From UHGV virus genome UHGV-0090146: a DNA stretch of 13,371 nucleotides. One strand, written 5' to 3'. This document shows, one piece after another, positions 10,672 to 13,371 of this stretch; within the stretch, counting starts at the first letter, position 1; each line of letters begins with the position of its first letter. Below the pieces are notes generated by a model, which saw only the letters and a program-made list of their open reading frames with translations, made no database searches and was not told where the DNA came from. A program made the position numbers and the translations under genes. This DNA is from a virus.

Positions 10672-10869
10672 TCAAACATCCTCATAACACCAATATGCAA
10701 CGCAAATTATTTCAACCAAATCATTTGATGATAAAAATTTATTACCATCATAAATTGCGTGAATTCTTTCACCATCAACAGTTAATGCCATAACATTTCT
10801 TCCTATCTGCGGACGCCAGAGATAGCAATCAAACCATTCAACATCATACCAATCATCTTCTGGACTCAT
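10672..10869 (-). CDS. Hypothetical protein (65 aa), translationally coupled
   Basis: ATG overlaps the stop of the 491-aa gene (ATGA) and is preceded by GAGGT. Its stop lies 1 nt before the ASCH gene start. No recognisable motif. Confidence 0.55.
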   Translation of the reverse strand: MSPEDDWYDVEWFDCYLWRPQIGRNVMALTVDGERIHAIYDGNKFLSSNDLVEIICVAYWCYEDV

Positions 10870-12341
10870 TTCAACCTCGGATTTATGTGCACAGTGTTTC
10901 CGATAAATACGCAGTAACCATCCTCTTCAAGTGATGGCAATACACTTGACCTGAGGCGGTCGTAAATTTTAGGTATTCCTTTGAATGGCCTAACATTTTT
11001 AAGTGAATCATAAAGCCACTTTACCGTTACGTTTGTTTTTCCTTTCTGAGCGGCAGAGCGTAGCTTTTCGGCAACAACATCAAATTCAGAACGCTCGCCA
11101 GCATATCCATTTGATTCCACGGCGTCGGTGAATGTTTTTGTCAGTGCGTCATAAACGCTGATAGCGCGACTAATTTCATTTTCACAGATAATTTTTGACC
11201 TCTTTCCTCCATCACACCAGTTTTCAGCAGCGTGAAATATTGCTGCCAGGCGGATTATTTGCTTATCAGCTTTACCCATTGCACCACGAAGAAGAACATG
11301 GTCCCACTTACCGCCTGGAAGGAAGTTTTTCTCCCACTGGTTTCGCAACATGCCGATCATTCTTGCTGAATCATTGTGAAGAGTCAGTCTTGTTTTTTCT
11401 GCTGACACAACATTATGTATAAATCTTGCATATTCCGACCTCAAGCTGTCTGGCATTGGCTTGCTTACAGGGCAGTCATTAACCATGTCCCAGTGTTCGC
11501 GATAGCCAAGCATTGATTGCTCGCGCAACATCAGGAAACGTTCAGAAAGACCGTTCCCCCTGTCGCCAGCGGCAAGAATGGCATCAATACTTTCATCCTG
11601 CGCAATCACACTTATGTTTCCAAGCACGTAACCAGATGAAACGCCACGACCAACACGAGCAGAGCCAATGAATCCTCCATCCCAGCCCTTCAGGATGACT
11701 TCGGCGTTTGCCTTTCCACCTTCTTTTCCGTAAGAGAGGCCAAGGCATGTGTTAAGGACGCTTGCCTCGTCACTTATCAGGTTAAAAAACCCACCTTCAT
11801 GGATGGCCTGATGCTGAACAGCCTCCGGCGTTGCGTCCGTCAGTGGATATGTAATCGTATAAAGCTCTTCCAGCTTCTCCTTTTCCCGAGCAATATCATC
11901 GCCGATTAGTGCCTTTGCATTCTGATTACTGGCCTCTTTATATGCCTTCATCAACTCTTCAATGCGAAGATTTATTTTTATGATCTGCTTTTCCATCTTT
12001 TTGGAAAGATTGTCATATTCAATCTTCACCGGATTCATGTGCATTGAGTTGATGGCGGTTTTCCCTGCTGATGGAGGCTGAGAAGTAACCACGTAAAGAG
12101 AAACTGGAAGTTCTGAATGGTAATACTCAACGCTAAAGTTTCTCGTCATTGCGCTGGCAACGCACCCAAGCAAATGCATGAACGATGTATTTATTGGGAA
12201 CTGAACGGCACGAGCTGCAGCGATTGCATAACGAGACAGCAAATCAGTCCGGTGCTCACTGGTAAGTTCTGTTTCTGAGTACGTTACATCACGCTCCTTA
12301 CCTTCCTTGATGTCAAGCCACATATTTGAGCTTGGTGTCAT
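10866..12341 (-). CDS. Hypothetical protein (491 aa) with degenerate P-loop NTPase-like motifs; possible DUF3987-like replication-associated protein
   Basis: Long ORF with SQPPSAGKTA (GKT, P-loop-like) and, about 90 aa later, FNLISDEAS (hydrophobic stretch plus DE, Walker-B-like). No canonical SD before ATG 12341 and an alternative Met at 12323, so the start is uncertain. Family assignment is from memory only. Confidence 0.8.
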   Translation of the reverse strand: MTPSSNMWLDIKEGKERDVTYSETELTSEHRTDLLSRYAIAAARAVQFPINTSFMHLLGCVASAMTRNFSVEYYHSELPVSLYVVTSQPPSAGKTAINSMHMNPVKIEYDNLSKKMEKQIIKINLRIEELMKAYKEASNQNAKALIGDDIAREKEKLEELYTITYPLTDATPEAVQHQAIHEGGFFNLISDEASVLNTCLGLSYGKEGGKANAEVILKGWDGGFIGSARVGRGVSSGYVLGNISVIAQDESIDAILAAGDRGNGLSERFLMLREQSMLGYREHWDMVNDCPVSKPMPDSLRSEYARFIHNVVSAEKTRLTLHNDSARMIGMLRNQWEKNFLPGGKWDHVLLRGAMGKADKQIIRLAAIFHAAENWCDGGKRSKIICENEISRAISVYDALTKTFTDAVESNGYAGERSEFDVVAEKLRSAAQKGKTNVTVKWLYDSLKNVRPFKGIPKIYDRLRSSVLPSLEEDGYCVFIGNTVHINPRLK

Positions 12342-12414
12342 GATGGAAGGCGACGCGAGCAGGAGATACTTTTAATTCCCTTGCTTCGTTGAAGATGTCT
12401 TGAGCTGTAATCAT
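12313..12414 (-). CDS. Possible small ORF (33 aa, MITAQDIFNEARELKVSPARVAFHHDTKLKYVA)
   Basis: ATG at 12412-12414 preceded by AAGGG with 7-nt spacer. It overlaps the stop of the upstream small ORF (TGATG) and the 5' end of the 491-aa gene. Too short to validate by sequence alone. Confidence 0.25.
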   Translation of the reverse strand: MITAQDIFNEARELKVSPARVAFHHDTKLKYVA

Positions 12415-12614
12415 CACTGAACCCTTAAAATTGTTAATTCGCATGTGTCCCTGTTGTATTTTGTCCAGTACACAAAGTCGCTTTTCTTCGAAATTTTGGA
12501 CAGGCACATCCTGAAAATAAGCACCTCAACACCTATCGCCTTAAGATTTATAATCTTTTTCTCGTCAACCCTCATTCTTGAGACTATATCGCGAACTCGT
12601 TTCATGTTTGACAT
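12414..12614 (-). CDS. Possible small ORF (66 aa from MSNMKRVRDIV...)
   Basis: Sits directly downstream of a strong minus-strand promoter candidate. Weak RBS. Basic protein with no recognisable domain. Confidence 0.3.
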   Translation of the reverse strand: MSNMKRVRDIVSRMRVDEKKIINLKAIGVEVLIFRMCLSKISKKSDFVYWTKYNRDTCELTILRVQ

Positions 12615-12650
12615 TTTTACCGCCAACCGTGGTTAATCATGGTGTGAAAG

Positions 12651-12679
12651 ATTATATAAAGATATAAACGAAATGGCAA
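12651..12679 (-). promoter_or_regulatory. Sigma70-like promoter for the minus-strand operon
   Basis: On the minus strand: TTGCCA (plus 12674-12679), exact 17-nt spacer, perfect TATAAT (plus 12651-12656). About 30-40 nt upstream of the first minus-strand ORF. Confidence 0.55.
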
Positions 12680-12740
12680 CCATATCATTCTTGGCGTGGT
12701 TTAAGCGACTAAATGGTTATCTGTGGGTAACGTGGGTAAG

Positions 12741-12767
12741 GCGTGGGGCAACCAACCTTCCCCACGA
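12741..12767. repeat. 27-bp repeat copy 1 (GCGTGGGGCAACCAACCTTCCCCACGA), internally palindromic
   Basis: Identical to the copy at 12929-12955. Contains inverted arms CGTGGGG / CCCCACG separated by 11 nt. Confidence 0.85.
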
Positions 12768-12928
12768 AGTTTTCCTATAAGTATATGTAATATAATAAAA
12801 TTATTATTATTTGGGTTAATGGGTACAAATGGATTATTTGAATATATTTATAAGGGGATGGGTATGAAATCTTCCCCTTTTTACCCACGAAAAATAAAAA
12901 CATTCAAATCAATTATTTACGATGAAAA

Positions 12929-12955
12929 GCGTGGGGCAACCAACCTTCCCCACGA
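12929..12955. repeat. 27-bp repeat copy 2 (identical to 12741-12767)
   Basis: Exact 27/27 match to copy 1, 188 bp away, in the same orientation. Confidence 0.85.
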
Positions 12956-13008
12956 CCTGCCCCACGGGCAAAAATTTACCCCACGAGCACGTTTTTAACG
13001 CATTCCTG

Positions 13009-13037
13009 TTGACGTGGAATCATAGCTGATGTAGATT
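13009..13037 (+). promoter_or_regulatory. Sigma70-like promoter for the rightward small-gene operon
   Basis: TTGACG (13009-13014), 17-nt spacer, TAGATT (13032-13037). GAGGGTGAAGAG RBS and ATG at 13068 lie about 30 nt downstream. Confidence 0.5.
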
Positions 13038-13067
13038 GAACTCATCGAAACAAACGAGGGTGAAGAG

Positions 13068-13214
13068 ATGAAAATCAAAGACCGTGAAGAATTTGAAGAT
13101 GCACAGGCTATGGCTCGCATTGCAGTTGAACGCACAAACAACAGCATTCCAGCAGATGCATTCTGGAACGCTGCAATGCAGGCATTAATCTCAGCGTATG
13201 GGTTAAGCAAATGA
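13068..13214 (+). CDS. Hypothetical small protein (48 aa, MKIKDREEFEDAQAMARIAVERTNN...)
   Basis: Not in the ORF track because it is short. RBS GAGGGTG upstream. Its stop overlaps the next ATG (ATGA). Confidence 0.45.
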   Translation: MKIKDREEFEDAQAMARIAVERTNNSIPADAFWNAAMQALISAYGLSK

Positions 13215-13306
13215 CAGGCGCATCATTTGAACTTATCGCCAGTCTGGTTATCGTGGCATTCATCATTATCGCAGTGGCAGTTTCTAAATCAGGATATAAG
13301 GAGTAA
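13211..13306 (+). CDS. Hypothetical small membrane peptide (31 aa, single predicted TM helix)
   Basis: MTGASFELIASLVIVAFIIIAVAVSKSGYKE has a hydrophobic core flanked by charged residues. ATGA overlap with the upstream gene. The downstream AAGGAG serves the next gene. Confidence 0.35.
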   Translation: MTGASFELIASLVIVAFIIIAVAVSKSGYKE

Positions 13307-13309
13307 TAA

Positions 13310-13371
13310 ATGGCAAAGACTATCTATCGTCGCGAAAAACTGGAACAAGAACTCGGTCACGTTGGCGCGCA
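13310..13371 (+). CDS. Hypothetical protein, 5' end only (MAKTIYRREKLEQELGHVGA...)
   Basis: ATG at 13310 preceded by AAGGAG at optimal spacing. ORF runs off the window end. Confidence 0.5.
   Translation, partial: MAKTIYRREKLEQELGHVGA

Follow-up and report, generated by a model that had tools for sequence, protein, structure and literature searches.

A predicted accessory operon of small genes at the end of a siphophage genome fragment

INTRODUCTION

That the small early proteins of phages can yield host inhibitors and counter-defence factors is well established. At the end of UHGV virus genome UHGV-0090146 (hereafter the window, meaning the whole 13,371-nucleotide (nt) stretch of DNA that was analysed), three short open reading frames (ORFs) follow one another on the plus strand between positions 13068 and 13371. 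The question raised by this locus is whether such short frames are genes, whether they form a unit of expression, and what their products might do. An earlier note, made from the letters of the sequence, had described an operon comprising a 48-amino-acid (aa) protein (ORF1), a 31-aa single-pass hydrophobic peptide (ORF2) and a third gene (ORF3), chained by an ATGA overlap and an AAGGAG ribosome-binding site downstream of a candidate promoter, and each of these elements was found at or near the position that the note gave for it. The window comes from a tailed phage of Salmonella or Escherichia coli, a virulent siphophage of the Macdonaldcampvirus/Akiravirus/Skatevirus type. Comparison with its relatives leaves hardly any doubt that the three genes exist and are arranged as an operon. 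With moderate confidence, we favour the fuller account in which the window ends with the first three cistrons of a polycistronic accessory operon that most likely serves host manipulation or counter-defence.

RESULTS

Coding status and junctions of the three small genes

The genes and junctions of the locus, with the evidence for each, are the following.

13068-13214, plus strand: ORF1, 48 aa, predicted soluble two-helix protein, phrog_2180 (profile match, substitution pattern, AlphaFold2)
13211-13214, plus strand: ATGA start/stop overlap of ORF1 and ORF2, candidate translational coupling junction (sequence read)
13211-13306, plus strand: ORF2, 31 aa, predicted single-pass membrane peptide, phrog_35977 (profile match, substitution pattern, hydropathy)
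13298-13303, plus strand: Shine-Dalgarno sequence AAGGAG within ORF2 codons K30-E31, 6 nt before the ORF3 ATG (sequence read)
13310-13371 (window end), plus strand: ORF3, first 20 codons of a 60-aa DUF7540 protein, phrog_16924 (identity to relatives)

We estimate that about one in four random 31-codon frames stays open, so that an open frame alone is no proof of a gene. We therefore rely on comparison. Related loci were retrieved via ORF1 (n=46), and ORF1, ORF2 and ORF3 were taken from each; the window's own clade (clade A) has 34 loci and a Jersey-like clade (clade B) has 15, making 49 in total for the promoter comparison described below. The ratio of nonsynonymous to synonymous substitution rates (dN/dS), which the earlier note had named together with conservation as a way to check the small ORFs, was calculated pairwise by the Nei-Gojobori method on distinct sequences from about 30 related phages (29 distinct sequences for ORF2 and 31 for ORF3), setting the in-frame value against the other two forward frames. 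In frame, dN/dS is 0.15 for ORF1 in clade A (1.2 and 1.4 in the other frames) and 0.07 in the Jersey-like clade, 0.22 for ORF2 (1.0 and 2.0) and 0.20 for ORF3 (1.3 and 1.9). Variable columns at first, second and third codon positions number 16/15/34 for ORF1, 16/9/22 for ORF2 and 34/35/55 for ORF3. Because in-frame dN/dS lies at 0.15-0.22 against 1.0-2.0 out of frame, and third positions are the most variable, we conclude from these substitution patterns that all three ORFs are protein-coding genes under purifying selection. For ORF2 the value is also 0.22 when only codons 2-25, clear of the Shine-Dalgarno sequence, are considered, and its substitutions are mainly hydrophobic-for-hydrophobic (I/V, L/M, A/S/T). 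ORF3 is intact in 31 of 31 distinct sequences. Two minus-strand ORFs (12995-13210 and 13108-13266) were considered as genes and set aside, as the distribution of substitutions over codon positions fits the plus-strand frame; the dN/dS calculation itself covered forward frames.

The junctions are conserved along with the genes. The 4-nt ATGA overlap is kept in the clade A loci examined, including one (L048) in which a different, 64-aa gene precedes ORF2. The AAGGAG sequence, replaced by AAGGGG in a few loci, is kept whichever gene comes next, be it ORF3, an Stp-like gene or a 52-aa gene. In the window only 3 nt separate the ORF2 stop from the ORF3 ATG.

None of these genes is new. They are already catalogued in PHROGs or Pfam and stand in public records as hypothetical or membrane proteins: the exact ORF1 sequence is deposited as WVQ01356.1 of phage vB_Eco_ZCEC08, and six assembled contigs carry the exact ORF2 sequence, with near-identical variants deposited as ‘hypothetical protein’. 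The suggestion that two of the ORFs fall below typical ORF-calling thresholds is true of older annotations such as the Vi II-E1 record, where none of the three genes is annotated, and does not extend to PHROGs or to newer records such as Akira and Bas79, in which all three are.

Predicted products

ORF1 was expected to be acidic and helical. The helical part of this description agrees with an AlphaFold2 model consisting of a two-helix hairpin (helices 6-24 and 29-43; mean predicted local distance difference test score, pLDDT, 75), while the protein is only mildly acidic, with an isoelectric point of 5.1, a net charge of about -1.5, and 7 acidic and 6 basic residues. It matches phrog_2180 with E 2.4e-23 (residues 1-47 on profile positions 6-52 of 56) and has no Pfam or NCBIfam family match. 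A search of the ORF1 profile against 1.84 billion representative proteins gave 43 hits, about 30 of them stand-alone proteins of 40-85 aa, and the motif common to the family is F.DAQ.MA..A...W.AAM.ALK.AY. In other genera, too, ORF1-family genes are part of strings of small genes that overlap by 1-4 nt. In Kagunavirus vB_EcoS-22664BS2 (L072, 1201-1350) the string that contains the ORF1-family gene comes after the lysin gene, and in another locus (L069, 389-535) a DUF2737 gene is located one gene beyond the ORF1 homologue; in both, no membrane peptide follows the ORF1 homologue. Jersey-like phages also have other genes after ORF1, such as one for a DUF2737 protein.

ORF2 matches phrog_35977 over 31 of 31 positions (E 3.9e-23), and its sequence is strongly hydrophobic, with a grand average of hydropathy (GRAVY) of +1.37 and an 18-residue uncharged stretch from L8 to S25. 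The best 19-residue window, FELIASLVIVAFIIIAVAV, has a mean Kyte-Doolittle value of 2.9 and an unweighted Hessa sum of -2.0 kcal/mol. It is followed by a short C-terminal tail, SKSGYKE. ORF2 thus has the sequence properties of a small single-pass inner-membrane protein (<=50 aa, one uncharged hydrophobic stretch), in keeping with the single transmembrane segment proposed before, which stays a prediction; the label ‘membrane protein’ is attached to it in Akira and in one UniRef cluster. Three other identities were tried and rejected. A hit to photosystem II Ycf12 in NCBIfam reached 16.9 bits against a cut-off of 34 and was driven by hydrophobic composition; a lipoprotein is not possible without a cysteine and hence a lipobox; and cleavage of a signal peptide after AVA would leave only 8 residues. 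A tblastn search with ORF2 against the phage collection returned no match, most likely because the low-complexity filter masks the hydrophobic query although the gene is present. We therefore searched the collection with a degenerate DNA pattern, by which ORF2 is limited to the window's clade of 44-49-kb phages.

Full-length relatives begin with exactly the residues seen at the start of ORF3, MAKTIYRREKLEQELGHVGA, and one of them matches PF24386 (DUF7540) with 111.3 bits (cut-off 27) and phrog_16924 with E 2.5e-40. A homologue of ORF3, QCQ57318.1 (orf79, UDP0079), and the gene next to it, QCQ57319.1 (orf29, UDP0029), both from MK759854.1, are in the set of 200 accessory-region genes screened by Silas et al. 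(bioRxiv 10.1101/2023.04.06.535777); UDP numbers agree with the orf numbers of that paper for ocr, arn, ral and ardA. ORF1 and ORF2 are absent from that gene set.

Promoter and leader

The elements upstream of ORF1 are the following.

13009-13037, plus strand: sigma-70-type promoter, TTGACG -35, 17-nt spacer, TAGATT -10 (consensus scan, 9/12)
13009-13014, plus strand: -35 hexamer TTGACG
13032-13037, plus strand: -10 hexamer TAGATT
13038-13067, plus strand: 30-nt leader with Shine-Dalgarno sequence GAGGG (13056-13060), 7-8 nt before the ORF1 ATG (sequence read)

The candidate promoter of the earlier note gains weight from comparison, as a sigma-70-type promoter of the same layout is present in all 49 loci. 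Within clade A the -35 hexamer TTGACG is invariant (34/34 loci) and the -10 hexamer TAGATT is found in 31/34, with TAGTTT in one phage and TATATT in another; the Jersey-like clade has TTGACT-17-TATATT at the equivalent position in 15/15 loci. Clade A also keeps the leader block ACGAGGGTGAAGAGATG and a distance of exactly 30 nt from the promoter end to the ORF1 ATG, lengthened to 185-260 nt in three loci with an intervening extra gene. The centre of the spacer varies freely in this clade, and the promoter is retained even where the DNA directly upstream is unrelated. Since layout and hexamers are conserved while the spacer centre and the upstream DNA vary, there is good comparative support for a functional promoter that would be read by the host polymerase. 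We infer both its start site and its early timing; the literature on early-gene transcription in Jerseyvirus or Macdonaldcampvirus yielded no usable transcriptome.

A variable cassette with an Stp homologue and natural knockouts

Between ORF1 and ORF3, six gene-content patterns occur in the 34 clade A loci, making this interval a variable cassette. ORF2 is accompanied by a 26-27-aa gene in 21 loci and by a 52-aa acidic gene in 3; it stands alone in 6, the window among them; an extra 64-aa gene lies ahead of it in 2, and the last 2 have other combinations. Some loci have further genes inserted ahead of ORF1 as well. The locus therefore shows the variable gene content between conserved flanks that marks an accessory region.

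The 26-27-aa gene, MSNWHNEHIMQWYRRRIKAIINSYEV, located between ORF2 and ORF3 (for example L005, 3243-3327), encodes a homologue of T4 Stp. Stp was recognized as a peptide of about 26 aa within the locus with the N-terminal core MSN[FW]HNEH[VI]MQ[FW]YR. The homologue scores 35.1 bits with PF08133 (cut-off 25) and E 2.5e-13 with phrog_6763, and 12 of 19 residues are identical to T4 Stp. Summed across patterns it is present in 25/34 loci, and the 52-aa acidic gene in 5/34. Because this slot holds an Stp homologue, the operon in relatives often carries a bona fide restriction-related factor.

Several relatives carry broken copies of the small genes. ORF2 has a stop at codon 7 in two loci (TAA in L010, TAG in L021) and at codon 27 in Vi II-E1 (L001/L030), and in ST1UNAM (L002) a frameshift joins its N-terminus to Stp. 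ORF1 is cut short by premature stops in two loci, L020 and STGO-35-1 (L031, with two stops). These natural nonsense and frameshift alleles imply that ORF1 and ORF2 are dispensable in nature. The ST1UNAM allele is annotated as an ‘anticodon nuclease activator family protein’ of 59 aa (L002, 2887-3066; OQ469755.1, 44407-44586). We considered it as a longer Stp variant and rejected this in favour of a frameshift fusion of the ORF2 N-terminus (MTGATLELIASLV...) with the Stp-like peptide.

Genomic setting and the upstream repeats

A search of phage records found about 200 that match the window. HC6, 6947, ST1UNAM, Bas78, Bas79, IME207, Vi II-E1 and Akira are 88-90% identical over most of it; these E. 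coli and Salmonella siphophages are classified as Macdonaldcampvirus and Akiravirus, with Bas78 as Skatevirus. The genes preceding the locus are arranged as follows.

first part of the window, plus strand: tail genes
after the tail genes, minus strand: replication/recombination block with helicases, an exonuclease VIII-like gene, a Sak4-like annealing protein and a DUF3987 helicase
10866-12341, minus strand: the DUF3987 helicase, 491 aa

A gap of 560-730 bp with no family-matching gene follows, and then the plus-strand small-gene operon, which in Akira continues as about a dozen same-strand small genes up to the small terminase subunit. No terminator-like site was found in 12300-13371, an Rfam scan of the whole window returned no known RNA family, and no lysis genes adjoin the small-gene locus within the window.

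The gap is rich in repeats. Six of the window's seven CCCCACG/CGTGGGG heptamers lie within 12720-12991, where 0.61 would be expected by chance in the whole window. They build two 25-nt palindromes, CGTGGGGCAACCAACCTTCCCCACG (12742-12766 and 12930-12954), and two direct copies (12960 and 12979) that together flank an AT-rich core, the last copy being 24 nt away from the -35 hexamer. Where a related locus extends upstream of the promoter, it has the heptamer cluster only if its neighbouring DUF3987 helicase (491 aa) is 98% identical or more; if that helicase is 33-35% identical or missing, the locus has zero copies and other repeats instead. The Vi II-E1 record annotates the repeat. Repeats and helicase look like an origin/initiator or operator/regulator cassette that would be exchanged as a unit. 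On the minus strand, a leftward promoter-like site, TTGCCA-17-TATAAT (12651-12679, 11/12 matches), points towards the helicase operon, and the two candidate promoters, leftward and rightward, would frame the repeat-rich, AT-rich stretch as a divergent control region. Two overlapping minus-strand ORFs of 64 and 70 aa at 12313-12626 have no PHROG or Pfam match. This stretch may be a decayed gene; Vi II-E1 has a pseudogene annotated in the equivalent interval between the helicase gene and the repeats.

DISCUSSION

How the operon might work

What the three genes do can be approached through their arrangement, predicted products and company in relatives. Two features make host manipulation or counter-defence the role that we favour: the accessory, conditionally dispensable character of the module, and the Stp homologue that its variable slot carries in most relatives; this step is an inference. 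Host RNA polymerase with sigma-70 would begin to transcribe the operon as soon as the DNA is in the cell. Ribosomes ending ORF1 would reinitiate on ORF2 at the ATGA overlap, tying the amounts of the two products to each other, and would then load at AAGGAG for the next gene. ORF1 would be a soluble two-helix hairpin that most likely binds another protein, since it is too small for an enzyme. ORF2 would enter the inner membrane as a single helix with its lysine-bearing tail, SKSGYKE, probably in the cytoplasm. The E. coli protein YohP (27 aa) is described as inserting post-translationally via the signal recognition particle (SRP) and SecYEG or YidC (PMC7549839), and by analogy ORF2 probably uses the same SRP/YidC/SecYEG route. 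Gp11 of PhiNM1, an early small membrane protein, is reported to bind MurG and DivIC (PMC11237401), and by the same kind of analogy ORF2 most likely binds a host membrane protein. The module as a whole would be accessory and conditionally dispensable.

One step further, ORF2 might be a new membrane-embedded phage effector that inhibits, or is sensed by, a host inner-membrane component linked to defence or restriction, working in the same early cassette as the Stp-like peptide. We regard this extension as a long shot. If ORF2 is sensed, the nonsense and frameshift alleles of relatives, including the two codon-7 stops, would be escape mutations selected on detecting hosts. T4 stp mutants escape PrrC in a comparable way.

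Several observations weigh against a role in host manipulation or counter-defence. The counter-defence idea rests on association with a neighbouring gene in relatives, and the window itself has no ORF matching PF08133; Stp is absent between 13306 and 13310. Of the 200 genes screened by Silas et al., those listed with a phenotype include neither the ORF3 homologue orf79 nor its neighbour orf29. No homologue of ORF1, ORF2 or ORF3 with an assigned function was found through phrog_2180, phrog_35977 or phrog_16924/DUF7540, and a Foldseek search of the ORF1 model against the PDB gave a best E of 3.4, nothing significant, which a two-helix hairpin would lead one to expect. For ORF2, both the insertion into the membrane and the topology are predicted. 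The sole Guernseyvirinae time-course found, for Kagunavirus K1B4, annotates 57 genes and is not mappable to these ORFs. Finally, a divergent member of the ORF1 family matches 598 phage records from several genera, mostly Salmonella and Escherichia phages including Jerseyvirus, Kagunavirus and Macdonaldcampvirus-like phages, and a family so widely distributed looks less like a fast-turnover accessory gene than like a conserved phage function. The host-takeover or anti-defence role proposed in the earlier note is thus plausible, given the variable cassette, the Stp slot and the selection of neighbouring genes by Silas et al., rather than demonstrated, and the window lacks Stp.

Alternative explanations

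The breadth of the ORF1 family, together with its very low dN/dS (0.07-0.15), would also suit a part in the phage's own programme, in which ORF1 regulates or aids transcription or replication at the adjacent divergent promoter and repeats and ORF2 tethers a phage complex to the membrane. The operon begins about 25 nt past the significant CCCCACG cluster that co-varies with the DUF3987 helicase. Two of the relatives nevertheless have premature stops in ORF1 (L020 and STGO-35-1), so the gene is not essential; the same ORF1 and promoter adjoin unrelated upstream cassettes and show no co-variation with repeat type; and the modelled 48-aa hairpin has no recognizable DNA-binding fold. We consider this explanation unlikely.

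Neither more nor less improbable is a membrane-active ORF2, which, like a type I toxin or YohP, would depolarize or permeabilize the inner membrane, or would keep out the DNA of a second phage (superinfection exclusion), with no specific host protein as its target. Its size, single helix and short charged tail resemble those of small membrane-active peptides, YohP is reported to depolarize the membrane (bioRxiv 10.1101/2025.05.06.652344), and recurrent natural knockouts would be expected if ORF2 were costly. Against this, nothing ties ORF2 to lysis genes or to an antisense regulator, and its helix has no amphipathic or charged face.

The placement of ORF2, overlapping the ORF1 stop and forming the next Shine-Dalgarno sequence with its final codons, could instead mean that it is a device for moving ribosomes from ORF1 to the next cistron, its peptide being functionless, and four independent disruptions are seen among 29 distinct sequences. 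A pure spacer would not conserve amino acids, however, and ORF2 does, with dN/dS of 0.22 over codons 2-25 and its hydrophobicity preserved, which makes this explanation improbable. Chance open frames in a conserved untranslated region, for which the estimated quarter of random 31-codon frames that are open and the fairly open minus-strand frames here might speak, can be set aside as very improbable indeed, because third positions vary most, the other forward frames have dN/dS of at least 1 with stops in 11-30 distinct sequences, and start contexts are conserved.

Significance and comparison with known systems

Returning to the favoured reading of an accessory host-manipulation or counter-defence operon, the locus is an ordinary early small-gene accessory operon and a source of candidate genes, not a new kind of system. 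Compact and variable in nature, it is found in phages amenable to culture and engineering (the BASEL isolates Bas78 and Bas79, and Akira), and its practical value lies in a short list of candidates: ORF1, with a family in about 600 phage records; ORF2, with its natural knockouts; and the Stp homologue of relatives. The Stp homologues in these siphophages lie outside the T4 group and may merit study against EcoprrI-PrrC.

The closest counterparts are annotated loci of the same kind. Akira QBZ71489.1 (48 aa) and QBZ71488.1 (‘membrane protein’, 31 aa) are the counterparts of ORF1 and ORF2, and their order, ATGA overlap and promoter are those of the window. Genes, order, overlap and promoter are also shared by Bas79_0083 to Bas79_0085 and by vB_Eco_ZCEC08 (WVQ01356.1), with no difference of substance; over the small-gene region the DNA of the window is 88-95% identical to these homologous loci of Akira, Bas79 and ZCEC08. 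Many relatives differ in that ORF2 and ORF3 are separated by an additional Stp-like or 52-aa gene, which the window is without.

Stp of T4 (26 aa; PF08133, activator of the PrrC anticodon nuclease) is described as blocking EcoPrrI restriction and thereby freeing PrrC. ORF2 is like it in being a very small early phage peptide, directly followed by an Stp homologue in 25 of the 34 relatives, and differs in being hydrophobic and unrelated in sequence. With YohP (27 aa), YkgR (33 aa) and Gp11 of PhiNM1, ORF2 shares a length below 50 aa and a predicted architecture of essentially one transmembrane helix; the likeness is one of size and architecture, and no similarity of sequence was found. The locus as a whole is most like the accessory regions screened by Silas et al., in which variable small genes lie within conserved flanks, sometimes beside a known counter-defence gene.

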